A stretch of DNA of 64,000 nt from Oculina patagonica. Lineage: Eukaryota. A model generated the notes under the pieces. It was not told the DNA's origin. It did no database searches and worked only from the letters and a program-made list of their open reading frames with translations. Every line of letters starts with the position of its first letter. Position 1 is the stretch's first letter. Below are positions 22,969 to 40,931 of the stretch, piece after piece. The stretch lies in contig NC_135760.1 in assembly GCF_052425735.1 (NCBI RefSeq), positions 13,392,001 to 13,456,000 of the forward strand. The letters are read 5' to 3'. The translations under genes and the position numbers were made by a program.

Positions 22969-23250
22969 CAACTCTTTTATTCCTGCTTGCCTTTTCATAT
23001 GCAAAAATCAGATTTGGTTCCCACTGTTATCATATTATTAATAATTAAATACTTCTTATCCAAGGTCATAAGAAAATTCAAAAAGCATTTTCTATTTTGG
23101 CAACTATATATAGCAACACAATAATATTTACTTTTTGATTTTTTCAGCCAATCAGAGCTTTCATTTTTTTGTCCAAAATTGTTTCTTAAATGTATAATTT
23201 TTCCGAATTGGTTTCAAAGTTGGTTGGGTTTTAGAAGCAGTTATTTCACC

Positions 23251-23625
23251 ATGGTTTACACACAAGCGCAATTGGAAGAGAAAATAATACATGCAACCGA
23301 GGTGATATCAGAGTCTTATCAGATATGTTTGGAGCTGTATCAGACACCAAAAGTTGATATTAATATGAAGCTTGATGAATTTAAACAGAATTTATCTACA
23401 ATGGATTTGGATACTGTAGAGGAGGGATTTGAGAAGGGTTTGTCGCTTTTCACAGAGATAAAGAAGATGATTTTTGAGGAACGGAAACGTCGCCGTTATG
23501 TACGACAGCTAAAGAATAAAAAGAGACTAAACAATATCAAGATGGATGTTAAATTGGTACGCAAATCCAGAAGACTACAAGAGGCTGAAAGCGTGATTAT
23601 TCACAATGGATTATCAGCAAACTGA
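23251..23625 (+). CDS. Polinton hypothetical protein (helical, basic C-terminus); likely ATG at 23251
   Basis: Open frame MVYTQAQLEEK... with a basic NLS-like stretch (ERKRRR). No recognisable family. Confidence 0.5.
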   Translation: MVYTQAQLEEKIIHATEVISESYQICLELYQTPKVDINMKLDEFKQNLSTMDLDTVEEGFEKGLSLFTEIKKMIFEERKRRRYVRQLKNKKRLNNIKMDVKLVRKSRRLQEAESVIIHNGLSAN

Positions 23626-23631
23626 ACTTGA

Positions 23632-23847
23632 TTAAATTTTATTATGGCCGTAAGCAAAACTGGTTTTACCATTTTCATGTATGTATCTTTTATCATCAAA
23701 GCAAGACAATGACACTTTATTAAGCTTGTAGCTATAAAGTTGATGTTTGTTGCTCCGAATGGTTTTCATCATATGATGCATATGTTTATTATTAAAGAGT
23801 GTCTCTCGGTAGTCTTGAAAATTGATGTCTTTTTTAATGATATTTTT
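23632..23847 (-). pseudogene. Stub of a second, divergent pPolB C-terminus (71 codons plus stop)
   Basis: Translates KNIIKKDINFQDYRETLFNNKHMHHMMKTIRSNKHQLYSYKLNKVSLSCFDDKRYIHENGKTSFAYGHNKI*, which is 47/71 identical without gaps to the end of the adjacent PolB (hand alignment). Confidence 0.9.
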
Positions 23848-23870
23848 TTATATGTTTTTTTATAGTGCGT

Positions 23871-26800
23871 TTAAAATAAACTTTGAATTTTATAATGTCC
23901 ATAAGAGTAACTATTGATCCCATTATCAAGTATGTACCGTTTATCATCAAAACAACTGAGTGATATTTTATTAATCTCATAGCTTCCGAGTTGATGATTT
24001 TGACTCCTGATGGTTTTCATTTTATGGTGCATTTGCTTGTTGTCAAATAATGTTTGCTTATAGTTTTCATGTGTGATATCTTTTTTGATGACGGATTTCT
24101 TGATTCCTTTGGCAGTCTTTCCAACTTGTAAATTGTTTTTAATATAAGAATACATTTTTGATCGCAGACCAATGAATTCTAAAATAGGAATAAAAGAAGC
24201 TTCATCTTTGAATTTACCAATGACTTTCTTGTTTGTTTTATTATAAAATGGAGAGCTTTCAGGGTAGTCACTATTGTCAAATTTTTCCTTATCATTCCAA
24301 AAGTCTTTGTAAACATCATCAGCCTCAATTTCATAGGTTAAGCTATCAGTATCTGTAAATAAAAGCCTAGCTTTATCCCCATATTTTTCTTTGATATAAT
24401 TGTAATGAAAATCATACATAAGTGTTTTGCTAAGATCTAGGATACACATCCCAATATATGCCGGCCTATTGAGAGTGAGTGTTTCTTTGATCTTATGAAC
24501 AGCTACGAGGTCTTCATTAAATATCTTACTGCTGACATAAGTTGGTTTACTTGTAAGCTTTAATAGCTTCTTTGTATTAGTTACCAATCTGACATCTACT
24601 CGCTTTCTTAAATTTTCCATGGTTTTACCGTATACTGAATTATTCATCAATTTAAAAAAGTCTTTTTCAAAAGTGTTTTTAGAATTTTTGCGTTTATCAG
24701 TATTAAAATCAATGTATTGCTTTAACCATGGAGATTGATTAAATTCTAACACTCGATGGACTTTGGTTAATTTTAAACCGAGATCTAAATACAACTGAAG
24801 ATTCTTGTAATGTAACACATATTTTTCCTTATTATTCAATGTAGGCATCAGTTTATGTACTAAACCTGTTGATATATTGTATTTTTCAGCAATGTTTTTG
24901 CAATAATCCGATAGCATATTTTGAGTTACTTTTACTTTTTCTGATCCAAGAGGATAGTCGTTATGGAGATCATGTAACTTTTTGGGGTATTCTAAGTCAA
25001 CTTCTAAAATCAAACCCTTCTTACTGTTTTCTGTATACTTAGATAAGTTTGTATTATTAATCTGCTTTTCTGTCAACCATTTAAAACCACCAGTTGGTAA
25101 AAATTGACTCATAGCCCATCCATAAAGGTTGTTTGCATCAAGATACATAATATACTTTGAGGGCACCTTTTCATTATATTCTTTCATGTATTTATTGTTT
25201 GCTTTACTATATCGATTGGCTATATAACTAATACCTCCTCTCATACCCTTTTCAATGAATTGATACATGTCAATGTCAGTCATCAACTCTAATTTAATGT
25301 CAGTCATCTTTAGCATAGCATCCCAGCTTAAACCTGGGGATGTGAAATAATGACATGGATCAAGCTTATAATACTTAAAACAGGTCTTACGGAAGCTTTC
25401 AAAAACATCTGCTAATAATAAGACATCTGATTTTAAATATAAATCATGATACTCACCCATATTTTTGATCTTAAACGTTTTCCACACATTTTTTGCATGC
25501 TTATAGTCTTTGTCTGATATATGCTCATTATTTAATATACTGTAAAATTCTTCTTTAGTTGGTAGCTCTGTATTAAATTTATCAAAGCTATCCATATAGT
25601 CATAGGGATAAACTCCTTTCCTCGACATAAGATTAAGCTTATCACCCTCAAACATTTTAGAAGTATATATTAATTTTTCTCTCGGCAGATTACTTACTAA
25701 TTTATCAAGACTGGAACTCATAAACTGGAAACTATCAAGGAATGTTAAATGATTACCGAGCATGAATGCCATATACTTTTCTATGTTGTTGGGTATAGCA
25801 TTGATATTCATCTCTTTCATTTCACCTTTTTTATTTTTATATGTATGGTTCTTAACAATACTTCCGATCTCTTGCATTATAAAGTGACTGTCATATCCTC
25901 TTAGATTATGAAAAATGACTGGTATTTTAATTTTATCGGGCTCTATTCTTAATTTAAGATTGCATTCTTGATGAGCTGATCCTCGATATTTACCAGTTAT
26001 ATGGCAATGGTCTCTAACTCGTATATCTTCGTCAGTATATTGTTTGTCACAAATATGGCATCCGTTTGCTTTTTGAAATGCATCTTCATCATCTTGAGTC
26101 ATTTTTAATGGTTTTTTAAAGAATTTTCGCATAGTCGTTTTGCAATATTTAACTTCATCTAGCATAGCTTCCATGAATTTATAAACAGCTTTTTCACCTC
26201 GGTATATCTGAACAGGCTTTGAATATTTATCATCATAGCAACAAACAACCTTATAACCATATCCACAATCTTTGTGTTTTTGATAAGCTTCAGTAAATGA
26301 TTTATCATCATTAGGCTTACAACCAGATATCTTTTCTGTTATTGCTTCAAAATCAGCATATATGGTGAATGGAACTTGCTGTTGCTTATGAAAGTTATTG
26401 AATTTCAGTATACTATTATCCTTATCAGGCATCTTTACTGCTTGAGTCCCATTGACTTGAATGCAATTATCTTTGTGATCGTTTAATACTCTCTCAGAAC
26501 TAAAGCACTGGAGACAATACATGCAAAAGAACTTCTTTTCTTTGTGTTTTGTTTTGTTATACATGAATTTATTGAAATCTTTTATTAGAATATAATGCTT
26601 GTTTTCATTTTCAGTTATCAATAATAAATTCATCTGATTGTCATACTTTTCTTTTGATATAAAAATGGGATATGGTTTCTTGTCTTCGTAACCGAAAACA
26701 TTTATATTGATTTCATTCTGTTTCTCGATTTTGTTGAACTGCTTTATATTCACAGGAAAATTAATTCCATCATAATTTAACTTTTCAACATATGCTTTAT

Positions 26801-27627
26801 CCGATTTTTTGATCCTTTGAGGGTATTTATCTTGGGGATTAAGATGCCTGATATGGCACCAACGGAAGCATTCATTATCCTCATTTTTCATGTTAATCAA
26901 TCCTTTTGCGCTGTTTCTAAGTTCTTGAGGAAGCCGAATATATGAGGAGCCTTTCATTGGTTCATATTTCACTATATTAAGATAGTGACCATCAACAGAT
27001 TGCAATAGCCCAGCCCGAGCCTTCTGATATCCACTGAGCTACGAAATTTAAGATTTGTTGTTTTGATTTTTGTAGCGATTCAGCAATCTCCATACTATTG
27101 ATGATTGTTTGAGGTTTGCTGTTGAAATAGGCTGTTTTATAAATAATGTCATCACCAGACATCTTTGAAAATGTTACCTTCAGCGTTTCAACAAATTTGA
27201 TTCCCTTTATAGCTATAAGGGTTTTTATGATATGATATTCAACAGCTTTCCTTGTGTTTTGTAGTTGTAATAACGGGTCTTTGTTATGTTTTATACCAAT
27301 TTCAAAAGACTTTGTGTAGCCTTTCATAGCTTTAGCAACTTCCTCTATCTTAGTCCTTGGTAATGGAATTGGGTTTTGTTTTATAGTCCTAGGCATTGGT
27401 ATAGGCTTGTAATCATCCCTAAATTCAGGAGGTGGTTGAATGATATTTTCCTCATAATCCTGCACCATCTGTTTTACACTCTTACGAGGAGTTGGGATTG
27501 GTGGCCTAGGTTTGTAAACTCTTGGTTGGTTTGCTTTTAGTGATAATACTAGTTTTATGAGTTCAGTTTTAGATAATTTTTCTAGATCTAATTCATTCAT
27601 ATTAATATATGAGATATTTTTTTCCAT
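23871..27627 (-). CDS. polB: Protein-primed family B DNA polymerase, split into ORFs 26992-27627 and 23871-27005 by a 1-nt insertion at ~27003; ~1251 aa if repaired
   Basis: Exonuclease motifs YADFE, FHNLRGYD and YLKSDV; polymerase motifs YLDANNLYG, KLMNNSVYGK and FTDTDS. An EndoVII-like insert CHIC...VRDHCHITGKYRGSAHQECN and a C2H2 finger CMYC...HKDNC are present. Removing base 27003 gives a continuous EGSGWAIQSVDGHYLN. Confidence 0.95.
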
Positions 27628-27793
27628 TTTTGTGTACTATATAGAATTACCATTTCTTTAAGTCCTTTATAGTAAAAATTATTTTTTAGATTTTTTTGGT
27701 GCGTTTAAAAGATAACCAGAAATAAATATATTTTTGGTCACCTAAGGCAACAGATAACAGCAATTCATATATACTGTGCTATACAATATATAA

Positions 27794-28033
27794 TTATATA
27801 ATATTGCTTTCTATGTTTTCAGCTGGTATTATGTTGTATTGGTCTTCATTAGCCTTGATAACAGTATTTTTAATATGCTTCTTGGTCCTTATGTGAGAGT
27901 GCTTTCCAGCGAGCGTGTAGTCATGTTGACATGCATCACATATCCATGATTTGTTTAGCATATATCTGGTCTTGCTTTCCTTAATAGCGTTTTGTCTGTC
28001 TTCTTCATTATCGTATTTTTTATTTCGTCCCAT
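27794..28033 (-). CDS. Small C2H2-type zinc-finger protein
   Basis: CDACQHDYTLAGKHSHIRTKKH (C-x2-C...H-x5-H); AT-rich leader. Confidence 0.7.
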   Translation of the reverse strand: MGRNKKYDNEEDRQNAIKESKTRYMLNKSWICDACQHDYTLAGKHSHIRTKKHIKNTVIKANEDQYNIIPAENIESNII

Positions 28034-28153
28034 TATATATACTATATATTATTTCCTTAAGTGTTTTTTATAGTGCGTTTAAAACTGGAAATATCAAAAT
28101 TAACGTACTATAAAAAGTGACTTAAAGAATTGTTATATAGTATAATTATATAG

Positions 28154-28468
28154 ATGAACAAACAACTGGTTGAAATGGAAACAATCGAGATGCTGGATGA
28201 TATATGGTTTATCCATAGCTTATATCCAAGTTGGGGTGCTAATGAGTCTGGTGATATTCTTTATATTGCCAAGAGGAAAATTTTGAAACCAAAAATGACT
28301 GATTCAGGAATGGTATTTAACGTTAGCAATGGGCATGGTTTTAGGCTATATCAAGTCGATAAATTCGTTTTTGAGGTTTTTAATGATATTGAATCAGTTG
28401 ATGGTGATATCATTCATATAGACGGTGATATAACCAATAACAGCTTTCTTAATTTGAAGCTTGTATAA
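28154..28468 (+). CDS. NUMOD4/HNH homing-endonuclease-like protein, possibly degenerate
   Basis: N-terminal HSLYPSWGANESGDI..KILK and C-terminal VDKFVFEVF...IIHIDGDITNNSFLNLKLV match the HNH_3 pattern VHRxVxxxF...DHIDGxxxNNxxxNL. Confidence 0.65.
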   Translation: MNKQLVEMETIEMLDDIWFIHSLYPSWGANESGDILYIAKRKILKPKMTDSGMVFNVSNGHGFRLYQVDKFVFEVFNDIESVDGDIIHIDGDITNNSFLNLKLV

Positions 28469-28576
28469 TATTAATAATTTGGTTTGCTTACACAGCTTTT
28501 ATGGTATATAAATATATTCTTTATATTTATGCCTTGTTGTAGTAGCATAAAAATAAATCTTACATATTAGTATATA

Positions 28577-28726
28577 ATGTCTTGTAATTCACAAATTCAC
28601 GATGAATTAAAGAATATTGAAGAGTTTTCATGTCGTTATTGTGATCAACTATTAGTGGAAGGCGATATTGCCTTGAATCATCTTTATATAAATATATTTA
28701 TATATGAGATGTTTTGTGATACATAG
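28577..28726 (+). pseudogene. Truncated paralog of the N-terminus of the downstream VLTF3-like gene
   Basis: MSCNSQIHDELKNIEEFSCRYCDQLLVEGD aligns with MRCFVIHSDLKIMGEGSCIFCNELLYTGD of ORF 28704, then degenerates and stops at 28724-28726. Confidence 0.7.
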
Positions 28727-29342
28727 CGATTTAAAAATAATGGGTGAGGGTTCTTGTATTTTTTGCAATGAGTTATTATATACAGGCGATAAAGTTGTTG
28801 ATCATTGCTGTGATAAACCTGATATTTTGGAAGATGCATATATGAAAGTATGCCAAAATTGTGGGACTCAGAATTATAAATATGTTAGCGAGTATTTTGA
28901 TTTTTACGAGAACAGACACAAGATATGGCGTAAAAGCATCTATCATCGTAAATACCATATTGAGAATGTTTTAAACGATTTATGTATTAAAAATGGAGTT
29001 CAATTGTCTCATAATCATCGCGATAAGATTTACAAAGTGTTTCATGAGATCGATACTATTCTTCCATCTATAAATAAAAGAAGAAAGAGGATGATCTCAA
29101 CGAAATATATTATAAGACAGTTGTTTAAAATGCTCGGTATACCATACAATTTTATCTGTGTTACTGAATCAAAAAAAACGCGAGCTTTTAATGATCGGTA
29201 TTGGGGTAATATTTTAGAATTGAAAAATCGTCCCAGATCGTGCGGCTTATTCAGTAAATTTATTATCATATTTTACCATATACCGATCTATTATTGGGCC
29301 GTTATCGCATATGTAGTCGTCAATGCTTTTCATTGTATTTAG
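28704..29342 (+). CDS. Cys-rich protein resembling poxvirus/NCLDV late transcription factor VLTF3 (A2L); its C-terminal end probably reads through into the neighbouring gene
   Basis: Zn-ribbon CCDKP...VCQNCG; YHRKYHIENVL (cf. YxRxxHFxExL); RKRMISTKYIIRQLFKMLG...ESKKTRAFNDRYWGNI (cf. RKNFLxYxYVLxKL...KSxxKxxxxDxIWxxI). Confidence 0.55.
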   Translation: MRCFVIHSDLKIMGEGSCIFCNELLYTGDKVVDHCCDKPDILEDAYMKVCQNCGTQNYKYVSEYFDFYENRHKIWRKSIYHRKYHIENVLNDLCIKNGVQLSHNHRDKIYKVFHEIDTILPSINKRRKRMISTKYIIRQLFKMLGIPYNFICVTESKKTRAFNDRYWGNILELKNRPRSCGLFSKFIIIFYHIPIYYWAVIAYVVVNAFHCI

Positions 29343-29746
29343 GATGCTAGACGGATTATAATTGCCACCCGTTCTCATAGTAACTTTAATAGAGTGTCAA
29401 AAGGTGTATGCATATAGGTTTGGGATGCATATATGGAGTTATGAATTTTTAGATCGAGATTTTTATGATCATCAAAGCCTTGAATTAATAACGAAATTGT
29501 AGTTATTGTAACCAAAGCAATACCACCTGTAGCTATAGAGGAGGCAAGGAAGCCGCTTGATGCAAAGAGGATAGACAATGAATTCCCTAATAACTTCCAT
29601 TTTTTGAAACGTTTAACAGCCTGCTTATAAGCCCAACATTTTCGATGATATGTTTGATAATAAGCTTTCAATTCTATAATTTGGTCTTCAGTAAGTTCGC
29701 TTGATATATGGTTCCATGTAAATATGCATTTTCGATGTTTAGTCAT
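29247..29746 (-). CDS. Two-TM membrane protein with a frameshift near 29395-29410; the C-terminus SIKVTMRTGG...KYDNKFTE* is in another frame
   Basis: Hydrophobic hairpin LLGNSLSILFASSG...GGIALVTITTISLLIQG. A stop-free continuation in a shifted frame ends with a stop at 29247-29249. Confidence 0.6.
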
Positions 29747-29778
29747 ATATATTAGTTATATATGATTTTTTTGCTTTA

Positions 29779-29895
29779 TTATTTTGTCATTTTAGCATTG
29801 CGCTTGTTCTTTATTGTGTAATACAGCTTCCTTATGTTTTGAATTAATCTCTCAATAGAATCAATAATATTGCTAACCAATTTCACTGTTTTCAT
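29779..29895 (-). CDS. Possible 38-aa basic amphipathic micro-ORF (MKTVKLVSNIIDSIERLIQNIRKLYY...)
   Basis: Fills the gap between two co-oriented genes and has an AT-rich TATATG start context. Confidence 0.35.
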   Translation of the reverse strand: MKTVKLVSNIIDSIERLIQNIRKLYYTIKNKRNAKMTK

Positions 29896-29932
29896 ATAAT
29901 TTAATTAGATAAAATCGTTGGAGTTAGATAAT

Positions 29933-31978
29933 TTATTGGAAGAATACAGCCTTTGTTTTATCTAAAAATTGGATTTTATGATACTCTCTACCATTTATCG
30001 GATATGCAGTTTTACTAAAAGCGATTCTTTGTACATAGTAATCTGAACTGATTTTAATGTTGGATGCATTGATATTAAACCTAGACAATGTTTGATCAAT
30101 ACTCATAGCATTATTGCAAACAGCGATTCTAAATTGATTTCCTATTTTAGTATACCAGAGATTCAAATATTTATCAAAATATGTTCCTCTTATTTGCTCT
30201 GTATATGAATCTAGATCATAATCGATGAATAGCTTATTATGCTCCACTTTAACCCACGGAAAACTAAAACTATCACCCTCGATAAATTCAATTTTAATCC
30301 TTTTATTATCACTGGGCTTATAGTCATATTTAAATGCCATATATATAGTCCAGTCATTGGATTCAGTGATATTTTCATTTAAATTAATTTCGAAACCACT
30401 CATAAAGCCGTTTTTTGGATCAAAATCTTCTAACAATTTTGTGGGATTAAAGACAAGATTGCCATTTAATCCAGACACTACAGCACCGTTACTATCTGAC
30501 ATGATGAATTCAGATGGATCCGTTAGATCATAAAAATACTCGAAAATTTTATGGTAATAGCTGATGTTTCTTTTCTTATCCATTTTTAATTCAAGATCAG
30601 ACTTCAAATTGTCCCGAAAATTTTTTAACTGTTCAAAATTAACAGCTTGGTCATTAGTAGTAGCTGGTTTAATACCATAAATAGCCTTTGTTTTCATATC
30701 AATCGATGCATTGAAAGCTATTCTATCATTTTCAACATAATATAGCTGATCGTATATCCTAGGATCAACGTTACTCTGATAACCTTTTATTCCATAAATC
30801 ACGATATATGTTTGTAATTTTGGGACATATGCGTTCCCTGATTTCATCTTTAAAACGATATCAACATAGAGATAATTATTAGGATGTTGCTGATATTTAT
30901 TAATTTGTGCTATTGTTCGACTATATCCATCATAAACTCGCGTAGTTGATTTGTCGATGTTGTCGATTGATGATACAATATCGATATCTAGACTATCATG
31001 ATCTATTTCAGCTGGAAAAAATAGCTCGAAAACCATTGTGTATCGATTGATTGGTAAACTATATACATTGATACCTAATCTGCTTGAGTAGTATCCTTTA
31101 TTGTTGTCAAGTACCAGCTTACTGTCTACAACTTTCGTATTGATCTTATGGTATGAATTCGGATGATCGATTAAACTGCCTAACTTTATATCATCTTCCT
31201 CGCTTAATTGATTGATACTATCGGCCATTATATGGGCAAACGTGTTTTCTTGGCCAACGGAAGTTATATGACTGCTATCAACATGATCAAGCATATATTT
31301 TTTGTTTACAGCGTCTGTATCATTGGTTGGGATTTTTAGATGGGTTATATTATACCCACCCATATGGAGATTTGCCTGCATCATGTTACTACCGTGAATA
31401 TCAAGCTTGCTTAGAATTTTTTGAGTCAAAACGCGTCCTACGACCTTCTTTAAAAAACTGTTATCAACGTACGATTTGTCTGCTTTGTTTTGAAGGCTTT
31501 GAGCTAAGACACCTCCTGATTTCTTCGTTAAATATGTATTATCAGCGTACGATTTGTCAGCCTTAGTAGCAAGTTTGGTATCAATTTCAGTCCTTACTTT
31601 GTTATCCTCAACACTAACATAGCCTACGTTTGGTACAGATCGATCGTTATATAAAGTTGGATAATACACTTCGGTATTTTGCAATGAAAGGCCGGCACAA
31701 TCAAACACTGTTTCATTTCTGTTCTTTTTAAGGAAGAATTGGTTAAGATATCGTTTATTTACGGCCGTCTCGAGATCCCTTGAATAATTTTCAATTGAAT
31801 CATCGATCGCAACGTCATCAGGCGTTTTTAGCCCTATTACTCTCTTTTTGTTCAAATTGAAATTACCTTCAGGCGTAACATCAAAGCCGACTCCTGGGTC
31901 ACCCTTTTCACCTCGAGGCCCTTTAATTGGCGTAATATTAGTGTTATTTGATTGTAATAAACCGTTTGAGTAACTCAT
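29933..31978 (-). CDS. Putative fiber/spike (receptor-binding) protein
   Basis: Collagen-like GPRGEKGDPG; three neck-like repeats (TAVNKRY, DAVNKKY, QAVNFEQ); a 26-aa tandem KADKSY repeat; beta-rich C-terminal domains. Confidence 0.65.
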   Translation of the reverse strand: MSYSNGLLQSNNTNITPIKGPRGEKGDPGVGFDVTPEGNFNLNKKRVIGLKTPDDVAIDDSIENYSRDLETAVNKRYLNQFFLKKNRNETVFDCAGLSLQNTEVYYPTLYNDRSVPNVGYVSVEDNKVRTEIDTKLATKADKSYADNTYLTKKSGGVLAQSLQNKADKSYVDNSFLKKVVGRVLTQKILSKLDIHGSNMMQANLHMGGYNITHLKIPTNDTDAVNKKYMLDHVDSSHITSVGQENTFAHIMADSINQLSEEDDIKLGSLIDHPNSYHKINTKVVDSKLVLDNNKGYYSSRLGINVYSLPINRYTMVFELFFPAEIDHDSLDIDIVSSIDNIDKSTTRVYDGYSRTIAQINKYQQHPNNYLYVDIVLKMKSGNAYVPKLQTYIVIYGIKGYQSNVDPRIYDQLYYVENDRIAFNASIDMKTKAIYGIKPATTNDQAVNFEQLKNFRDNLKSDLELKMDKKRNISYYHKIFEYFYDLTDPSEFIMSDSNGAVVSGLNGNLVFNPTKLLEDFDPKNGFMSGFEINLNENITESNDWTIYMAFKYDYKPSDNKRIKIEFIEGDSFSFPWVKVEHNKLFIDYDLDSYTEQIRGTYFDKYLNLWYTKIGNQFRIAVCNNAMSIDQTLSRFNINASNIKISSDYYVQRIAFSKTAYPINGREYHKIQFLDKTKAVFFQ

Positions 31979-32002
31979 ATTATATCAATCAGTTATATTA
32001 TA

Positions 32003-32644
32003 TTATATTTTTTCATTGAAATTCTTAGTTACGAATTTTCGTGGCTTATCAATATATAAAAAGCTAAATGGGTCTGCAGTTGCTTTGAGATAGTCGTTTT
32101 TACTGATTCCAAGTTCTCTGCAAATCATTCCTTGTTCATTATTAGATGGGAATTCGAAAATACAGTGATGAGTACAATTTAATCTGATTGTTTTATCGGT
32201 ATTATAATAGCTTTGAGATAAATAAATGCAACTGCAATTTTTATTTCTTGAATTTGTAAAATAGTTGCGTATTTCGCTATCATTTTTTGATCCCGTATTG
32301 AGATAATCGTCAAAGATGACTAGTTTTTGTCCTTCATCTGATATTTTATCAAGCGGTATTATTTTATCATTACTTGCTTCAATAACAGAATAACCAGCCT
32401 CTTGATTAAGGGGTTCAAAGGTATTGAAAAGATGTTGATATTTTGATTGTTGAAGATTTTTCCCATACAAATATATTTTATCATAAAACAATAGCCGATA
32501 TATCATATCAAGTAAAAGGTTTGATTTACCTCCGCCTGATGGTGATGAAATCAGCATCCGGAAACATTGATTTGGCATGAAATCGTATAGTTGTCTAAAG
32601 TTTGAGGCCATATCGTCTTCAGTGTCATAATTCGGTATTCTCAT
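32003..32644 (-). CDS. A32/FtsK-HerA-type genome packaging ATPase
   Basis: Walker A SPSGGGKS, Walker B LVIFDD, and downstream SRNKNCSCIYLSQSY and IRLN. Confidence 0.9.
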   Translation of the reverse strand: MRIPNYDTEDDMASNFRQLYDFMPNQCFRMLISSPSGGGKSNLLLDMIYRLLFYDKIYLYGKNLQQSKYQHLFNTFEPLNQEAGYSVIEASNDKIIPLDKISDEGQKLVIFDDYLNTGSKNDSEIRNYFTNSRNKNCSCIYLSQSYYNTDKTIRLNCTHHCIFEFPSNNEQGMICRELGISKNDYLKATADPFSFLYIDKPRKFVTKNFNEKI

Positions 32645-32780
32645 TATATTATATGGGTATATTATTTTCAGTTCAACAAGGTGTTCAACACGGTGTACAT
32701 CAAGGTGTTAAACGCTATGTTAAATGTTGATTTTTATATTCAATTTTCATTTTTTATGTAACGTAATAATATAAAATAAA

Positions 32781-33791
32781 ATGAGTTTACTTAGATGGAA
32801 AGAGCTTGCAAAGAGTAAATCTGATTTGGGCGATAAAATCAATTATGTTAAAAATGCAATCACACAAAATAATATCGGTCAGCAGACAAGCCAAGAGTCA
32901 TTTTCGAAGGTATTCAAACCAGTGACAAGTAAATTAGATGATGTAATTAAAAGTAATTTGCAGATAGCAAAAGTACCCAAAAAGCGTGTCAAAAAGGGGA
33001 TGAGAGGTGAAATGGAAGCTCCAGATTACTATCCTGAAGTTGATCCTTTTGAGGATATGGACGTAGATAATTTATTTGATGAGCCTGTAATGCCACAAAA
33101 TGAAAAACAGATTGTACCGAAACCACCAACATATGAAGAATCTTTAAAAGATCTTTTAGAAGGAAATAAGGAGATTTTTGTTGATCCCCAATATTTTCCT
33201 GAATATGAAGATGAATTACCTCCTGAATACGATGAGGATGAAATTGATTATGCTTTAGATGCTGATGATGAAGTAAGTGAAATACTAGAAGACGTTGGTA
33301 TCGACGATTATGATGTAGTGCAAATGAAATTAGATCAGCCTGAAATGACACCAAAAAAAACCAAGAACTATCTTAATAAGATTTTAGAGAAAGCCAAATA
33401 TAAACGGAGACAATTGAAAGGTTTCAAGGCGAATGTTACTAAAGAATATAATAGGGGAACTATATCTGAAGCGGAAAGACAGATTAAAAATAAGAGAATA
33501 AGCAATGCAAGAGTTGCATTAAATGACTACATAAATCATTACGAAAGTAAAGCCAAAACGATAAAAGGTTCTGGTATTCGAAAAAATCAGAAAGGTGGAA
33601 ATGTTATATTTTTTAACGATGTAAAACAGCTTCTCAAAAAATTGGAATTGATCATCGGTTCAATAAACGCAGGAAACACATCAGTTAAAATGCGAAATAT
33701 GGGAGTCGCTATATTAGACACACTTTTAAAAAGGTCTACTATAAATAAACAACAATATAAACAGATATATAATCTGTACTTTAAAGTCTAA
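32781..33791 (+). CDS. Conserved Polinton protein of unknown function (acidic centre, two PPxY motifs, C-terminal LIIGSINAGN motif)
   Basis: First gene of the co-oriented morphogenesis cluster. The LxLxxGSxxAGN motif recurs in Polinton proteins. It contains a candidate protease site, IKGS/G. Confidence 0.65.
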   Translation: MSLLRWKELAKSKSDLGDKINYVKNAITQNNIGQQTSQESFSKVFKPVTSKLDDVIKSNLQIAKVPKKRVKKGMRGEMEAPDYYPEVDPFEDMDVDNLFDEPVMPQNEKQIVPKPPTYEESLKDLLEGNKEIFVDPQYFPEYEDELPPEYDEDEIDYALDADDEVSEILEDVGIDDYDVVQMKLDQPEMTPKKTKNYLNKILEKAKYKRRQLKGFKANVTKEYNRGTISEAERQIKNKRISNARVALNDYINHYESKAKTIKGSGIRKNQKGGNVIFFNDVKQLLKKLELIIGSINAGNTSVKMRNMGVAILDTLLKRSTINKQQYKQIYNLYFKV

Positions 33792-33813
33792 TTTATGTAA
33801 CTGTATTATATAT

Positions 33814-34572
33814 ATGGATCGTGAGTTAGTATTATCATCATATAGTGTTAAAAATCAAGGGAATAACACTCCTCAAAATTTTACAACTAAATTCAACAGG
33901 CCTATAACATTGGATAGCAATTACCAATATATGATAGGTCTCAATCGTATTATTAACATGTCATTTACATGGTTTAATGTAAATCCCTCATATGGTAATC
34001 AGCTGATTAAATATAGTTCAGATAATGGGAATAAATTTGAAGACATAACTTTCCCTGCAGGTGTTTGGAATTATTCTGAATTTGATGAATATATTAAAGA
34101 GATTACTAAGACGGGGGATGATGATAACCCTATATATCCCATCTCTATTGATTTTGATTCAACAACATTCCGAGTCACAATCACTTTATCTCAAAATTAT
34201 CAACTTGATTTGACGCATAGCAATTTCAACGACCTTATAGGGTTTGATAAAAAGGTATTAAAGGATGCGGTTAATATTGGTCCAAGAGTCCCAAATCTAA
34301 GCCAAGATACCGATATATTAAATGTACATTGCGATCTAGTCAATACTTCTTTAGTCGATGGCGAAGAGTCGGATATCATTTATACTTTTTCGACCAGCGT
34401 ACTACAGCCGAGTTATTCGTTTACAATCGAGCCTCGTAGGGTCACATATAACCCGGTTAATAAGCAACAGATAAGTAGCATTCGAATATACATCACAGAT
34501 GGGAAGAGACGGTTAATTAACCTGAATGGAGCGGATACGTCTTTTTCATTAATTTTGAAAAGGATAGAATAA
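33814..34572 (+). CDS. Minor capsid protein (penton, single jelly-roll)
   Basis: NTPQNFTTKFNRPITL, LNVHCDLV and ISSIRIYITDGKRRLINLNG motifs; position upstream of the MCP. Confidence 0.85.
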   Translation: MDRELVLSSYSVKNQGNNTPQNFTTKFNRPITLDSNYQYMIGLNRIINMSFTWFNVNPSYGNQLIKYSSDNGNKFEDITFPAGVWNYSEFDEYIKEITKTGDDDNPIYPISIDFDSTTFRVTITLSQNYQLDLTHSNFNDLIGFDKKVLKDAVNIGPRVPNLSQDTDILNVHCDLVNTSLVDGEESDIIYTFSTSVLQPSYSFTIEPRRVTYNPVNKQQISSIRIYITDGKRRLINLNGADTSFSLILKRIE

Positions 34573-34591
34573 TATAACATAATAGTATATA

Positions 34592-34993
34592 ATGAAACCA
34601 TATGAATTCAAGAGGTTTTACCATCCAAAATTTGGTAAATTTGTATATAAGCACAAAGGGTCAGGGATTATCGTTGATAACATTTTCAAACCGATGAAGA
34701 GTGTTATGTCGTCTGTTGTTAAAAAAATTGTCAAGCCCTTAGGTAAGAAGGCAATAAAATCAGGTATTTCTCATGCAGGTGATAAACTGGGTAAAAGGGC
34801 ATCAGAAAAAGCCGGAGACCTTATAATGGAAAGGCTAAGGAATATGAGGAAGGGAAATGCTGGGCAAAAGTCACTATCCCCAATCTTACAGAAAGTAAAT
34901 GCCTCACCTGTCAGACACCAACAGAAAAATGAAAGTACTGATATGATCATTAATAGATTAATATCAGGATCAGGTGTAAAAAGAAGGCGTTGA
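34592..34993 (+). CDS. Basic amphipathic virion protein, adenovirus pVI-like (membrane-lytic candidate)
   Basis: KGS/G followed by the amphipathic helix IIVDNIFKPMKSVMSSVVKKIVKPLGKKAI; C-terminal ISGS/GVKRRR; lies directly upstream of the MCP. Confidence 0.55.
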   Translation: MKPYEFKRFYHPKFGKFVYKHKGSGIIVDNIFKPMKSVMSSVVKKIVKPLGKKAIKSGISHAGDKLGKRASEKAGDLIMERLRNMRKGNAGQKSLSPILQKVNASPVRHQQKNESTDMIINRLISGSGVKRRR

Positions 34994-35058
34994 GTAAAAT
35001 GAATAAAATGATTAAAAAAATTGGTACATAATTGCAAAATTATGTAACATAATAATAT

Positions 35059-36324
35059 ATGTCTTTTAGAACAAGCGAATACTTACAGAGATATGAGTTG
35101 GTTCGATTTCAACTCGATGATGTAATTCGAGTCCCAGCTAACGGTCAGCACCAACTTAAAAACGGCTATAAGTTCACGATTAACGATAGAAGTTCATTCT
35201 ACGATTGGTATAATGCGTATTTCGAGGTGCAATTTCAGGTGCAAATGTTAGCTGATGGAGCAACCACGGGGGCGAATCGTATCACAGTTATTAATGGAGC
35301 ACATTCATTGATTGCCCACATGATGATTAAATCAGCAGGAAAAATCGTTTATGATACCGATAATCTCCATAAAGTTACTTTCGTTAAGAATCTCCTCGAA
35401 TATAGTGACGATTTTAGTCGTTCAGTAGCAAAAAATAGTCTTTGGTATCTAGATACCGACCATAGGATAGCAAATGCTAATCAGAATGCAGGGTTTGAGG
35501 CTAGGCGACTTTTGACGACAGGTCTCAATGATGTCAATGTTGTTATACCTCTAAATCGTTACAGTTTCTTTGAAGAGCTGGAAGGTCGAATGTTACTCCC
35601 AATGCAACTCCAATTCAATATACAGTTACAGAATGACGCCGAATTACTTAAAAAGGCCGATGATGTAGCTGATGGACGAGTGGTCCTTAATAGATTCCTT
35701 CTATGGGTCCCAAAATTGACTCCAAAGGACAGCCTATATGATAAGTTTGTTAGTTCCTTCTTGGTAAAGAACACTTGGACGTATATGCGCGAAATGTATG
35801 AGGTTTCCGCACCAACGAATAGCAGTGGATTCTTCCAGATCTCATCCAGTATTGATAATGTTAAGGCTATCTTTGTATATCTACAACGAGCTAAATCAAA
35901 CAATGCAGATGAAAATCCCTATGAATTTGATACCTTCAATATCAATCTTGACCGTGGGAATGGTAGTTATTTGACAACATGCCGATTGGAATACGGCAAC
36001 GGAGTGTTTTATCCTGAGACCGAATATGATAGTGAGTCCAAAGTTAGGATCTTCAATGATTTGATGTCTTATGGTATGAGAAAGAATGATTACAACAGCG
36101 GTACACAACTCAACTTGGCAAATTACAACTCTCTCTATCCTATTATCTTTTTTGATTTATCATATCAAGCAGAGCGAGTAACTAGAGACCCAAAGCAGTT
36201 GATCTTCAGATATAAACTAAACGCTAATAGTGCGGGAGATAGTCCTTTCAACGTCCATGCCATCGTTCTTTATGATGAGACAATCGTCATTGACAAGGTG
36301 GGGAATGAGCTGGTTATTGTATAA
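35059..36324 (+). CDS. Major capsid protein (double jelly-roll, Polinton PY/hexon-like)
   Basis: 421 aa, beta-rich; motifs VKNLLEYSDDF, IPLNRYSFF, LWVPKL, FYPETEY and YPIIFFDLS; located between penton and protease. Confidence 0.85.
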   Translation: MSFRTSEYLQRYELVRFQLDDVIRVPANGQHQLKNGYKFTINDRSSFYDWYNAYFEVQFQVQMLADGATTGANRITVINGAHSLIAHMMIKSAGKIVYDTDNLHKVTFVKNLLEYSDDFSRSVAKNSLWYLDTDHRIANANQNAGFEARRLLTTGLNDVNVVIPLNRYSFFEELEGRMLLPMQLQFNIQLQNDAELLKKADDVADGRVVLNRFLLWVPKLTPKDSLYDKFVSSFLVKNTWTYMREMYEVSAPTNSSGFFQISSSIDNVKAIFVYLQRAKSNNADENPYEFDTFNINLDRGNGSYLTTCRLEYGNGVFYPETEYDSESKVRIFNDLMSYGMRKNDYNSGTQLNLANYNSLYPIIFFDLSYQAERVTRDPKQLIFRYKLNANSAGDSPFNVHAIVLYDETIVIDKVGNELVIV

Positions 36325-36415
36325 ATCAATCAATTGAATATTATGTATAAACCATTCTATTTTGTATACGTTTTATAAACAAGAAATTATATAACATATA
36401 ATATATATACAAGTA

Positions 36416-36922
36416 ATGACAACTTATCACTCTCATAAAGTGAATCTGTCAGAAGGACAGCGAAGGAAGCTTTTGACTGCTTATAGAAATAAAAGTGAGA
36501 TCACTATTCGCTTAAGCAATTCAGATATGACTGGCAATGACAGTTTAATGCTAACTCAACGACAAATCAATAAATTGAATAAGGCTAAGAAGTTAGGTGT
36601 TGGATCTTATTTAAACATCTCAAAGGCACAAATTCGAAAGGTCATTAGGGTCGGTCATGGGGCACCGCGGATTGGTTTTCCAATGATTGGAATAAGTGCT
36701 ATGAAAACGAAAACAAGATCAAGAAGGTCAACAACTAACAAATCAACAACTGATAACACTTCAAAGAAGGATGGTGGAAATATTAGACTACCAAGTAAGA
36801 AAGATGTATTAGCTTACACACCGCCACCATTCATTGGTTCTTGGGATGAATATGATAAATTTCTTAGAACAGGTGGATTGGTGCTTCCAAAAAAAAAGAT
36901 CTTAAAACCGAAAAGAAAGTAA
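36416..36922 (+). CDS. Basic putative core (DNA-condensing) protein
   Basis: Pattern VNLSEGQRRKL...TIRL...LMLTQRQINKL..A...G...ISKAQI seen in Polinton structural modules; K/R-rich, with GxG motifs. Confidence 0.6.
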   Translation: MTTYHSHKVNLSEGQRRKLLTAYRNKSEITIRLSNSDMTGNDSLMLTQRQINKLNKAKKLGVGSYLNISKAQIRKVIRVGHGAPRIGFPMIGISAMKTKTRSRRSTTNKSTTDNTSKKDGGNIRLPSKKDVLAYTPPPFIGSWDEYDKFLRTGGLVLPKKKILKPKRK

Positions 36923-36951
36923 GAAAGCCAACATTCCATAAGAATATACCA

Positions 36952-37383
36952 ATGAGTAATTTTGATTTAATAAACTGGTGTTTATATTTGAATATACCGA
37001 TAAAAAATGTACTAATGAGAGACGAGACTGTGCCACATAATCACAAATTAGGAATATTCATTTACAATCTCCAACCGTCATATCTGAGTGGTAGTCATTG
37101 GGTTGCAACTTATGTAAAAGATAAGGTAATCAATTATTTTGATAGTTTTGGTATGCCTTCATTTCAAAAAATAGTCGATCACGCAAAAAAGAAGAATTTA
37201 ACATTGCTACATCAAAACAATCAGATACAGAATATAAATACAACCACATGCGGATACTTCTGTTTATACTTTTTGAATGAGATGAACCATGGGAATACGT
37301 ATTCTAATTTGTTGGAAGTGTTTGACATATATGACACAATGAAGAATGAGAAATTCATTCAACATTATTTCAGAAATATATAA
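36952..37383 (+). CDS. Adenain/Ulp1-like cysteine maturation protease; the frame is open from 36868 and may be reached by -1 frameshift
   Basis: Catalytic motifs GSHWVA, YFDSFG and QIQ...TCGYFCLYFL. Confidence 0.92.
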   Translation: MSNFDLINWCLYLNIPIKNVLMRDETVPHNHKLGIFIYNLQPSYLSGSHWVATYVKDKVINYFDSFGMPSFQKIVDHAKKKNLTLLHQNNQIQNINTTTCGYFCLYFLNEMNHGNTYSNLLEVFDIYDTMKNEKFIQHYFRNI

Positions 37384-37397
37384 CTTATATATATATA

Positions 37398-37850
37398 ATG
37401 GTTAAATCGTATTGTGTACGTGAAAAAATAAAAACTAATTCAGTTCCTAATTCTGAAAAATATATGAGAACAAAAAACAATCGTTTAATACTCAAATCGA
37501 AATGCGTTTCTTGTGGTATTACTAAAACCCGTTTTGTTAGTGCCCAAAAAAAGAAAAAAGGGCGTGGAGTAGGTGAAACGATTAACAAAAAGGTCGGCGA
37601 AAAGATTCCAGGGTTTCAACAGGCTCAAGACTTAGCATCGGCTATCATGGCAGTTACCGGAGGTGATAAAGATCTATTTAAAAAATATTGGCGCGGTGAC
37701 TTTGCTAAAGGTATATTTAATAAAAAAAGCGGAATTCAGACATCTAATTTTTGGAAGCCTGCTGGTGCATATACAAATGAAAAATTTAATCCATCATGTA
37801 ATTACACAGAATATAAAAACGGCAAATGGGTTAATCATTATTGTGATTAA
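37398..37850 (+). CDS. Zn-ribbon (DUF5679-like) basic protein with a unique C-terminal region
   Basis: YCVREK...TKNNR...KSKCVSCGITKTRFV followed by KKGRG. Confidence 0.6.
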   Translation: MVKSYCVREKIKTNSVPNSEKYMRTKNNRLILKSKCVSCGITKTRFVSAQKKKKGRGVGETINKKVGEKIPGFQQAQDLASAIMAVTGGDKDLFKKYWRGDFAKGIFNKKSGIQTSNFWKPAGAYTNEKFNPSCNYTEYKNGKWVNHYCD

Positions 37851-37869
37851 TATCTAACATATAATATAT

Positions 37870-38482
37870 ATGTGCCTGTCATACTGCGTTTCATGTAATA
37901 AAAAAACAAATTCAATCAATACTAAAAAAGTAAAAGCAAAGAATGGCCGACTTATGGAAAAATCAATTTGCTCAATCTGTAAAAACAAAAAGAGTAAATT
38001 CATCAAAGGTGGGGCTCTTGCACGTTTAAAGCCCTTCTCTGTTGTTGTTCTTTGTCTCTCCTTTGGGTGGGGGCGGAAAGGAAGGTATCGATATCCATAA
38101 AGCTATTTTAAAAGTAGCACCAAAAAAGGGTTTTGTAATGCCTGGTCATCGTTATACAGGTCCTGGTAATCCTTTAGAGAAACAGGTAAAGTGGGATCAA
38201 AAAACAGGTAAAATACTGGAGATATATGAAAAACCAACAGGAAAAACGGACGCCGTGAGCATGCAACATGACGTGGATTACTCAGTATGTGCAAACAAAC
38301 CATCAAAAAATCAGGTTAAATGCAAAAACGAAGCTGATAAAAAGATGGTAAAAGCCCTTGATGCTATCCCATGGAAAGACAGACAATGGGGTCATGCTAT
38401 TGCAAGGAACACTATTGCTACCAAGGCTAAAGTAGGTATGGGTGTAAAACAAAAGAAGACAAAAAACGGAAAACGGCGTTGA
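37870..38482 (+). CDS. Zn-ribbon plus parvovirus VP1u-type phospholipase A2 virion protein, interrupted by a 76-nt insert/intron at 38009-38084
   Basis: YCVSC...KNGR...CSICKNKKSKF; PLA2 calcium loop PGHRYTGPGN and catalytic QHDVDY...EAD. Removing 38009-38084 gives in-frame FIKGIDIHKA. Confidence 0.8.
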
Positions 38483-38533
38483 GTAAAAATGATTGGTCTC
38501 AACAATTAGCCGATGAGTTACATAAACCAATCA
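38461..38533 (+). promoter_or_regulatory. Predicted -1 programmed ribosomal frameshift signal (A_AAA_AAC plus H-type pseudoknot)
   Basis: In-phase heptamer at 38461-38467. Stem 1 is GTTGAG 38478-83 / CTCAAC 38498-503, extendable by CGGC 38474-77 / GCCG 38509-12. Stem 2 is TGATTGGT 38490-97 / ACCAATCA 38526-33. Confidence 0.7.
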
Positions 38534-39429
38534 GACGAAAATTTAAAACTAGAAGAGTAATATCAAATGGAATTGACGACATATGGTCTGCTGATTTAGT
38601 TTTTATGGATAAACTTTCAAAATGGAATAAAGGTTATAAATATCTATTGACTATAATTGACGTATTCAGTAAATTCGCTTGGGCTATTCAATTGAAAGAT
38701 AAGAAAGGTGCATCAATAACTAACGCTTTCAACAATATTGTCATTAATGACAAGCGTAAACCTGAATATCTCTGGGTCGATAAGGGATCTGAATTTTATA
38801 ACAAAACATTCAAGGAATGGCTAAAGCAAAATGATATTAACATGTATTCTACTTTTAATGAAGGTAAAGCTGTTGTTATTGAGAGATTTAATAGAACTTT
38901 GAAAAATAAAATGTACAAACAGTTTACTATTCAAGGTAATACACAGTATCTTGAAATGCTACCAAAAATAGTAAAAGAATATAATAATACAAAACATAGC
39001 TCTATCAAAATGACACCCATAGAAGCTTCAAATAAAAAGAATGAAGGAACTGTTTACTTTAACCTATACGGTGATATGAAAACATCAAAACAGAAACCGA
39101 AATTCAAAATAGGTGACAAGATCCGAATATCTAAGTATAAACGAATTGTTTTCGATAAGGGTTATACACCGAATTGGAGTGAAGAAATGTTCGTAATTAC
39201 TAAGATCCAACATACTAATCCCATTACATACAAATTGAAAGATCTCAATAATGAAGACATACAAGGAAGCTTTTATGAACCTGAATTATTAAAAGCAAAA
39301 CAGGATGTATTCAGAATTGATAAAGTGATCCGTAGAGATTATAAGAAAAAACAAGCTTTAGTTAAGTGGAAAGGATACAGTGATGACTTCAACAGTTGGA
39401 TTCCAATCAAGGATTTGAAAGATATATAA
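38479..39429 (+). CDS. Retroviral-like (rve) DDE integrase with C-terminal chromodomain; no AUG before the first catalytic Asp
   Basis: ELHKP, WSADL, IDVFSKFAW, VDKGSEF, IERFNRTLK and YNNTKHSSIKMTP; chromodomain LVKWKGYSDDFNSWIP. Confidence 0.95.
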   Translation: MSKNDWSQQLADELHKPIRRKFKTRRVISNGIDDIWSADLVFMDKLSKWNKGYKYLLTIIDVFSKFAWAIQLKDKKGASITNAFNNIVINDKRKPEYLWVDKGSEFYNKTFKEWLKQNDINMYSTFNEGKAVVIERFNRTLKNKMYKQFTIQGNTQYLEMLPKIVKEYNNTKHSSIKMTPIEASNKKNEGTVYFNLYGDMKTSKQKPKFKIGDKIRISKYKRIVFDKGYTPNWSEEMFVITKIQHTNPITYKLKDLNNEDIQGSFYEPELLKAKQDVFRIDKVIRRDYKKKQALVKWKGYSDDFNSWIPIKDLKDI

Positions 39430-39548
39430 TCAATTTTTAAGAGTGCCTTAAAATCAATTATCAAGTATTACACATGCAAATAAAAATATTAAGTATAATA
39501 TTTTTATAAATCAGTATTTGATTACAAAAAATATTTTAGGACATACAT

Positions 39549-39908
39549 TCATTTTAAAAAAACATTGAATTTATCAACAACTAATTTTTCATCTAATTGA
39601 TTTTCATTATAAAAAAAGGTATCAATATTTATAATACTACAGCCGTTATCAAAAAGCATTTCGACAATATCTAAATTAAACAAATTTGATATTACGTAAT
39701 TAGTATCTTTATAATTATCAAAATATGCTTCAATATAATCGGCCCATGGGTTAGCCCCGCCATCCATAACAATTACACTGTTTGGCTGATTAAATACCAT
39801 GTGCTTGAAATTAAATTCATCTTCTAAGATTTTAGCAATTATTTTAATATCATTCGATCTATTATTTTTATCCGAGGTTAAACCGATTATAAATCTTTTA
39901 TTATTCAT
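39549..39908 (-). CDS. Degenerate deoxynucleoside-monophosphate-kinase-like protein
   Basis: IIGLTS...IAKILEDEFNFKHMVFNQP...YVISNLF...GCSIINI parallels IIGLxGxxGSGKDT.A..L...GF....FA.P...VI.DvRF...GG.II.I, but the P-loop GK is missing. Confidence 0.4.
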   Translation of the reverse strand: MNNKRFIIGLTSDKNNRSNDIKIIAKILEDEFNFKHMVFNQPNSVIVMDGGANPWADYIEAYFDNYKDTNYVISNLFNLDIVEMLFDNGCSIINIDTFFYNENQLDEKLVVDKFNVFLK

Positions 39909-40013
39909 ATATATATTACAAAGAGATTTTATTTTTATATGGATTTATGTGTTTTTCCCTTAAACGCACTATAAAAAACACATATAAAAAAAAAAAATGT
40001 GTCATAATATTAT

Positions 40014-40355
40014 ATGAGTAAAGCAGATATAAAAAACAACCAATTATCTAATTTAATCAATGAAATAACATCAAATCATGATACAAACAGTTGCTCAAAA
40101 CATGTAATATCTATACTAAAACTTGTAATAGCACTCAATAAAAGAGCTCAATTAAATGAAAAAATATTATTCCATTTAAAATCCATCTCAAATTTAAATC
40201 CAATAAAAAACATCCATAAGCTACAAGAATTGAGTAATCATTTAGATTCTCAAGTTAAAAAAATTGATATTTTAAAATCACAAATCATCAATTCAAACAT
40301 TAAAAAAATAGAAATCATTATAAAAGATGATAATATAAATTTATCTGAATGTTAA
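40014..40355 (+). CDS. Polinton hypothetical protein (helical/coiled-coil)
   Basis: Open 113-aa frame with a TATTATATG start context; no recognisable motif. Confidence 0.45.
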   Translation: MSKADIKNNQLSNLINEITSNHDTNSCSKHVISILKLVIALNKRAQLNEKILFHLKSISNLNPIKNIHKLQELSNHLDSQVKKIDILKSQIINSNIKKIEIIIKDDNINLSEC

Positions 40356-40409
40356 ATGACCAATCCACTATAAAAGAGATATAAAAAATAATGTATAATA
40401 AATATTATA

Positions 40410-40589
40410 ATGGCATCAAATTACATCAAAGAAAAATTCGTTGAGATGATGAATATCATAGAAAAACATTGCATTAAAGACAATACACTTTTCTTACAAT
40501 TAAGTGAAAAGGAACAATCAAATATATTAGTTAACATTTGTACTGATCTCGGTATAATATCAAATATGATTCTACATAAAAACATGTAA
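40410..40589 (+). CDS. Polinton hypothetical 59-aa protein (MASNYIKEKF...)
   Basis: ATG at 40410 after TATTATA, stop at 40587-40589; below the ORF-track cutoff. Confidence 0.4.
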   Translation: MASNYIKEKFVEMMNIIEKHCIKDNTLFLQLSEKEQSNILVNICTDLGIISNMILHKNM

Positions 40590-40645
40590 AAAAATCTGAT
40601 AAAAATACAAAAATATTATATTGAAAATGTAATATAAGACGTTCA

Positions 40646-40931
40646 TTTTAAACGCACTAAGATGCAAGATTTTTAAAAAAGAGTATAAGAGATTTTGAAA
40701 TAAAACTCGGCTTCGCTTGGTTTTCCAGATTGATATTTCAGTTATGATATCAAGGCTTGTTTAAACGCACTGTATCTAAAATTTTGAAAAAGAGTATAAG
40801 AAGTTTTGATTCCATTTTTTGAATCCAGTTTTGGATCCAGTTTTAAATCCAGCACTGGAAAGTAGTATGTACTTGGGGAGATGAAATTATTTTTTAAAAA
40901 ATGATTTCGTACCCCCAAGTACTATACTACT
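40646..40931 (-). repeat. Polinton right terminal inverted repeat
   Basis: Reverse complement of the left end; ends ACTATACTACT followed by TSD AGTTTT. Confidence 0.93.

Follow-up and report, generated by a model that had tools for sequence, protein, structure and literature searches.

Polintons are thought to form virions. To our knowledge, there is no account of how they make and package their maturation protease. The question is raised by a locus within a stretch of 64,000 nucleotides from Oculina patagonica, referred to here as the window (contig NC_135760.1, positions 13,392,001 to 13,456,000 of the forward strand), in which an adenain-like protease lies in the -1 frame behind a basic, core-like ORF. 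An earlier note had proposed a -1 frameshift from the one into the other. The junction is a real, conserved feature and, judged from sequence comparison, the protease is likely to be a minor C-terminal extension of the core protein, produced by a one-base slip on a run of adenines, with the polymerase somewhat favoured as the enzyme that slips.

The Polinton element and its genes

The element spans 22672..40931 (no strand assigned) and is bounded by a terminal inverted repeat of 233 nt (99%) with AGTAGT...ACTACT ends, which is flanked by a 6-bp target duplication (AGTTTT). Its genes, as identified with Pfam, include pPolB, an A32 ATPase, PLA2, two DUF5679 ORFs, a VLTF3-like ORF (28704-29342, PF04947), and an rve integrase with a chromodomain. 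The matches to PF03175 (protein-primed PolB), PF00665 (rve integrase), and PF04665 (packaging ATPase) are all above the Pfam cut-off. By its termini, the duplication, the pPolB, integrase and ATPase genes, and the adenain-like protease, the element is a Polinton/Maverick, of the adintovirus type. A 421-aa ORF on the forward strand (35059..36324) probably encodes the major capsid protein. Its stop is located 92 nt before the core ORF, and it does not overlap with the protease. We assume this label from position and size, and the label "minor capsid" from position; neither the 421-aa nor a 252-aa ORF has a Pfam match.

Several other features were recorded. A TAAC(N)TATATA leader is located directly before most ATGs in 32741-37870 and 27794-32684. 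The polymerase region (23871-27627) and the DUF5679/PLA2 region (37870-38482) are each split over two ORFs, the second lacking a leader, and both look interrupted in the window copy. The pPolB ORF (23871-26957) carries an Endonuclease VII-like insert (PF02945, residues 285-336). Outside the Polinton, a large palindromic element (43881-48241) consists of two arms of some 1.3 kb (97%), with a perfect-looking hairpin of 172 nt (46443-46615) at its centre.

The junction in the window copy

The core-like ORF encodes a basic protein of 168 aa in the 0 frame of the forward strand (36416..36922). Its ATG is preceded by an AT-rich TAAC/TATATA leader (36376..36415), which is likely the promoter for both core and protease. 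After a TAG at 36865, the protease frame opens at 36868, -1 to the core ORF; the two frames overlap at 36868..36922. The overlap holds CCA AAA AAA AAG at 36887-36898, including A9 at 36889..36897, the candidate slip site, with A_AAA_AAA and A_AAA_AAG in phase. All of these coordinates agree with the earlier note, and the fusion product proposed there is what natural in-frame copies in the same genome read. An in-phase X_XXY_YYZ heptamer inside the -1 overlap is present, as is automatic for any run this long. Just before the run, the R-T-G-G codons (36866..36877) may constitute a Gly-Gly cleavage site, in view of the specificity of adenain and pS273R. Of the 17 lineages compared, 15 have a G-G or G-x-G no more than about ten residues ahead of the run.

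Between the run and the Met of the protease there are 18 codons of the -1 frame (36898..36951), the last eight of which (PTFHKNIP) are conserved and predicted to be ordered. The ATG at 36952, 29 nt after the core stop, begins the adenain-like (clan CE) cysteine protease domain (36952..37383), assigned by alignment and fold match. As observed before, this ATG is preceded by neither TAAC nor a TATATA-like word, while TAAC is present 14-24 nt upstream in all seven other ATG-started genes of the forward-strand cluster 32781-37870. The ATGs of the integrase, the PLA2 piece, and pPolB likewise have no TAAC or TATATA-like word. A weak look-alike of the leader (TAAG AATATA) is present 14 nt upstream of the protease ATG, but its letters track the codons and differ from one relative to another.

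Folding of the sequence downstream of A9 revealed no structure (z -0.09 and +0.87), which bears out the earlier impression. In 19 ORFs with 14,568 coding bases, A9 occurs only here, against an expectation of 2.2. A synonymous redraw of P-K-K-K-I yields at least nine A's in 42% of cases, and the window copy alone thus proves little. Taken by itself, its run does not exceed chance; the argument is carried by conservation among other copies and relatives.

The core-like protein and the protease fold

The product of 36416-36922 is a candidate core protein. Its N-terminal domain matches the database protein P0268 (E 8e-7), which unites in a single frame a core domain and the protease, along with a pX-like segment and a long Lys run. 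The Adeno_PX score of P0268 is 24.7 bits, just under the cut-off of 25, and no Adeno_PX segment was detected in the window core ORF or in eight relatives. Searches of Pfam, PDB, and the Atlas gave no assignment for the core protein, all Atlas leads being under 0.9.

In the protease alignment, the His, Asp, Gln, and Cys residues are invariant. A first model from 27 close sequences, with a pLDDT of 60, was replaced by one from 97 sequences with a pLDDT of 91.7. This model matches adenain with a Z of 16.6 and an rmsd of 2.0 over 144 aligned residues (Foldseek E 5e-7), and the Pfam Peptidase_C5 score of the window protease is 18.1 bits, below the cut-off of 21.3. Residues 11-20 of the model, of which eight lie ahead of the Met, have a pLDDT of 96, and residues 1-2 of adenain align two residues before the window Met. 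According to the model, a start at this Met would retain nearly the whole fold, with only the counterparts of adenain residues 1-2 missing, which counts against the need for a fusion in the window's own family. If translation began 6-34 codons further on, the first helix would be truncated or lost, and this counts for such a need in the sister groups that carry Leu at the Met position, described below.

Copies of the same family

Among the 150 matches listed for the window's own protease family, 145 copies were examined and five C-terminal pieces were left out. The core and protease frames are in the -1 relation in 121 of the 145 copies, in-frame in 14, and +1 in 10 (120/15/10 by another rule). 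In-phase A_AAA_AAA is found in 119 of 120 -1 copies, and the run lengths among 119 copies are A9 in 103, A11 in 11, and A12 in 5. Insertions of 3 and 15 nt in some copies leave the frame intact. Other A/T runs of 6-7 in the region, which has no second A9, barely vary among copies. The ten codons between the core stop and the Met change mostly synonymously at F, I, and P (eight haplotypes). The ATG is retained in 144 of 145 copies, and a second route from this AUG is therefore possible in the own family. The fusion and AUG routes could coexist there.

The 24 copies in an off-state correspond to 20 changes on a tree built without the junction, compared with 23.4 after shuffling (P 0.002), and most have a -1 copy as nearest neighbour. 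The off-states thus show slight clustering from near-identical pairs and are mostly recurrent length changes in both directions. The junction is crossed gap-free by contigs from two independent runs (X1 record 8, X8 record 24), so the -1 state does not stem from misassembly.

Sister groups in the same genome

The same genome contains a second protease type, 41-42% identical, behind the same junction. In the four sister groups, 70 copies were examined from the 150 matches listed, and all 70 have Leu at the Met position. Two of these groups have no AUG from codon -15 to +2 (45/45 and 10/10 copies), and their first Met lies 6 or 26 codons in. The 55 AUG-less copies imply that a fusion or a non-AUG start is required in these two groups. 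Their -1/in-frame/+1 states are 25/11/9 and 6/1/3, respectively. In the other two sister groups, an AUG overlaps the core stop in 5/5 and 10/10 copies. The arrangement for termination-reinitiation, with an AUG in or next to the upstream stop, is thus not general, being absent from 55/55 copies and present in 15/15. In the group of ten, A8 directly precedes the stop, except in L293, which has an interrupted run; ten further copies repeat the pattern, and two are length variants. L321, from a different family in the same genome, serves as a control: this stand-alone protease has an ATG of its own that follows a TATATA leader.

Two protease types that are only about 42% alike occur behind one and the same core C-terminus and junction, and different core N-termini share the junction (L146-L149, L233-L277). 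Modules appear to have been swapped by recombination right after the junction.

Relatives in metagenomes, databases, and viral collections

The Met position is variable beyond the genome. In the best 120 of 558 homologs, two of which start later, it is M in 78, L in 32, I in 4, and T in 4 of 118, and KPKFHK[ND]IP is found ahead of it. In the diverse alignment (n = 97) it is L in 63, M in 16, I in 8, and T in 7. The earlier note had asked for Met conservation among homologs: the residue is kept in the own family, and it is replaced by L, I, or T in relatives, including the sister groups.

From the metagenome set, 72 of 80 loci were usable, with an ATG at the Met position in 55 and another codon in 17. 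Sorting by the longest upstream ORF gave 26 -1, 28 in-frame, and 18 +1 loci of the 72; this approach was misled by indels, in which these degraded copies abound, and was replaced by one based on the local core-end motif. The conserved core-end peptide was found in 52 of 72 loci, the other 20 having no recognisable core end. It is -1 to the protease in 48 of the 52 and not -1 in four. At least eight A's lie upstream in 44 of the 48 -1 loci, and in 40 of them the protease frame is open from the run, over about 25-30 dual-coding codons. A synonymous redraw keeps the -1 frame open in only 1-8% of cases in ten metagenome loci that were chosen as intact. Past the run, the 0 frame itself encodes a conserved peptide up to its stop.

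Two IMG/VR contigs of 13-14 kb, L150 and L151, contain proteases of 35-38% identity in the same layout. Their core domains are homologous to that of the window (E 6e-6 and 2e-7, in a small search), and the core homologs of 350-388 aa end with G-G, a Cys motif, and an A run. More precisely, the G-G motif is followed by A10 or A9, one codon, and the stop, and the protease frame is -1. It is only at the run that the -1 frame of L151 becomes open, its first Met being 30 codons in. L315 has the same layout with no Met for 105 codons, and no AUG before the catalytic His. L313-L317 are Polinton protease loci inside two bacterial MAG records, probably as host contamination. The -1 overlap with an A run, whose conservation in homologs the earlier note proposed to check, is thus conserved in the own family, the sister groups, metagenome loci, and viral contigs.

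Wider viral scans yielded 3, 10, 0, 2, and 0 loci. Among the ten, only L303/L304 (identical with L150/L151) show the overlap, and the other eight have their own Met. Many distant homologs also start with their own Met; the layout is therefore common, not universal. Four database proteins (P0121, P0145, P0149, P0268) are in-frame fusions. Furthermore, in L306:2315-3883 a viral protease is fused in frame, after a G-G motif, to a long, basic, His-rich C-terminal region, whose match to the core profile is not significant (E 0.56). Other distant proteases (P0199, P0211, P0249, P0204, P0231, P0257; P0212, P0227, P0241) are in-frame fusions with an unidentified domain on either side, or with a C-terminal domain that is PLA2-like by eye.

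The A run and the integrase junction

Whether the run is under selection was assessed through its codons. Across 20 junctions, two of which were mis-picked and one of which lacks KK, non-final Lys codons are AAA in 37 of 41 cases, compared with 144 of 217 in other KK pairs; the p of 0.0015 overstates independence because the loci are related. In this AT-rich element with its Lys runs, the chance of at least eight A's under synonymous redraw is high, at 0.37-0.93 per locus. The run thus appears modestly enriched, and the open -1 frame and the missing AUG weigh more. The runs range from 8 to 15 in length, and each of the three codon phases occurs as their starting point. Intact junctions nearly always have at least eight A's, the exceptions being L165, L172, L211, and L217, which are frame-disrupted, and L293.

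In pseudoknot-free folding, distinct junctions gave z values of -2.0 to +1.4, none below -2.0. A consensus fold of 23 of 37 distinct relatives contained nothing conserved near the run, only a 4-bp hairpin far downstream. A stimulatory stem-loop 5-9 nt downstream of the protease run was likewise not found by this folding. The frameshift reading of the earlier note is supported as a fusion, by the -1 relation, the A run, and the missing AUG, but the site is not a classic one of heptamer plus structure.

The earlier note had also placed the integrase in a -1 extension, and this agrees with the survey. The PLA2-to-integrase junction carries A_AAA_AAC (38461..38467, forward strand) and is likewise -1. 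Of the 145 own-family copies, 44 had no PLA2 anchor and 7 lay outside the stretch. A_AAA_AAC occurs in every -1 class listed, with 53 copies having only six A's, and the first integrase Met lies 33 codons downstream of the junction in nearly all such copies. At the integrase junction (38440-38605), a stem was noted 6 nt after the site (-10.6 kcal/mol, z only -0.9). Both enzymes may be packaged and made in minor amounts.

With six A's and a C sufficing at the integrase site and at least eight A's at the protease site, the latter looks length-dependent. According to passages of PMC12946587, human A9 and A8 tracts allow rescue by transcriptional slippage of about 15% at the protein level and 11% as in-frame transcripts. 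In the E. coli system described in parts of PMC4363877, ribosome sliding required A11, with little product on A9 or A10. A_AAA_AAC is listed among the most shift-prone eukaryotic heptamers in a section of PMC5009743. Since the protease junction looks like a pure A-homopolymer with no stimulator, polymerase slippage is at least as likely as ribosomal shifting.

Proposed mechanism and alternatives

It is proposed that the short, basic core protein would be the product of most transcripts from the core leader, while a minority would yield core-protease after a one-base slip on the A run. Through its core part, the enzyme would enter the particle at a low, fixed ratio, to be freed by cleavage at Gly-Gly or G-x-G just before the run. 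A fusion made by a slip at one level or the other, polymerase or ribosome, has strong odds in its favour. That RNA polymerase is responsible, by adding one A, is put at slightly under an even chance. Two points weigh against slippage in general: L293, a copy with the stop-overlapping AUG, has no A run, and A runs can lengthen after integration. Tentatively, the ribosome could make the same fusion by shifting -1 on A_AAA_AAA or A_AAA_AAN, aided not by a structured stimulator but by slowing on poly-Lys or a nearby stop. This would fit the in-phase heptamer in 119/120 -1 copies, as any run of at least eight A's holds one, the stop at most one codon from the run in L294, L315, L150, and L151, the A_AAA_AAC retained by the same element at the integrase junction, and the runs of 11-12 in several lineages, which attain the sliding threshold. 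However, six A's would suffice for a heptamer although intact protease junctions nearly always have at least eight, no 3' structure is conserved, and the E. coli work excerpted above saw little sliding on A9-A10.

A separate translation of the protease from an AUG near the core stop, by reinitiation, leaky access, or a short mRNA of its own, would reduce the run to a poly-Lys tail. The ATG kept in 144/145 copies 29 nt past the core stop, the AUG overlapping the stop in 15/15 copies of two groups, the ATG in 55/72 metagenome loci, the start of adenain at almost this position, and the 42% likelihood of the single-copy run are all compatible with it. It is nevertheless judged unlikely, as no AUG is present at this place in 55/55 copies of two groups sharing the junction or in 17/72 metagenome loci, the -1 frame is open over the dual-coding codons in 40/48, and the leader is missing, unlike in the stand-alone control L321. 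Even less credit is given to a constitutive in-frame fusion, with the -1 state due to decay or homopolymer assembly error, or with in-frame variants supplying the protease in trans. In-frame copies do exist (14/145 and 11/45), as do the four in-frame database proteins, and off-states cluster slightly on the tree. Yet -1 is the majority in every group, save in the degraded metagenome set by whole-ORF length, +1 is about as common as in-frame (10 vs 14; 9 vs 11), and the 24 off-state copies need 20 changes, mostly with a -1 nearest neighbour. The contigs of independent runs are gap-free, and the 0-frame tail past the run is a conserved peptide with a stop. Splicing or a non-AUG start (CUG, UUG) into the protease frame is similarly far-fetched: CTG or TTG does encode the Leu at the Met position in some copies, but CTA (30/45), TTA, and CTT are also present, the A-rich region ahead of the protease contains no pyrimidine tract, and no GT..AG joint was seen in four contig sets whose RNA status is only guessed.

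Implications

A core-protease fusion could combine three functions: the dose would be set by the slip rate, delivery would be provided by the core part, and release would follow from self-cleavage. A conserved fusion of this kind would strongly hint at selection for particle assembly. It is predicted that Polinton protease and integrase genes are mis-annotated from internal Met codons, and that some calls of "frameshifted, dead" copies are wrong. A nine-base cassette could separate polymerase slippage from ribosomal shifting in a reporter. The identity of the transcriber of the leader-bearing genes bears on slippage, and the element encodes a VLTF3-like factor.

Comparison with known systems

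In adenoviruses, adenain is a free protein made from its own start codon. The window protease resembles it (Peptidase_C5) in fold and catalytic residues. Alpha-type adintoviruses/Polintons, as described in parts of PMC8502044, share with the window element the terminal repeats, 6-bp duplication, pPolB, A32 ATPase, integrase with chromodomain, adenain-like protease, and PLA2. The searched passages and supplement of that paper mention no programmed shift for protease or integrase. The closest precedent comes from passages of PMC11071296, in which Hexon-Adenain ("Hexain") and Penton -1 fusions were predicted in adintoviruses. As at the window junction, a -1 slip was proposed there to join adenain to an upstream structural gene. 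The excerpts base this on a KnotInFrame prediction in a few sentences, and of 12 Hexain passages, the two shown concern adabscovirus proteins. The partner in Hexain is the major capsid protein. At the present junction it is a core-like protein, no structure accompanies the pure A run, and the arrangement was tested for conservation. Among the open literature searched, as far as its passages go, only PMC11071296 combines Polintons with a slippery frameshift. No core-protease or PLA2-integrase shift was found in the open-access passages and supplementary text covered. The passages of PMC11131425, PMC12567637, PMC11161782, PMC8097293, and PMC5803895 likewise contain none.

Transcriptional slippage on A tracts is described for IS elements, Shigella spa13, and potyviral PIPO (in the section of PMC5009743 used here). 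The window junction is similar to such productive sites in having at least eight A's, in its independence of phase, and in that one added A would open the downstream frame. In the literature searched, no report of transcriptional slippage in Polintons or adenovirus-like viruses was found. Recoding and Polintons are both known, and the core-protease junction and its homopolymer form appear to be undescribed.

In retroviruses, Gag-Pro(-Pol) frameshifting yields the protease as a minor fusion, which is released by cleavage. As in Gag-Pro-Pol, the protease and integrase of the window lie -1 behind structural-type genes, and as they have no start signal of their own, they would be minor fusions freed by cleavage. 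Unlike retroviruses, the window element consists of dsDNA, encodes a clan CE cysteine protease, and has two separate junctions on two different carriers, and unlike at retroviral sites, no stem-loop was found at its protease site by pseudoknot-free folding. It is conceivable, though somewhat doubtful, that a wide group of Polintons and free DNA viruses independently reached the Gag-Pro-Pol plan, with polymerase stuttering for the protease and ribosomal shifting on A_AAA_AAC for the integrase. If true, a eukaryotic dsDNA virus of the adenovirus lineage would be using transcriptional slippage as a programmed step.
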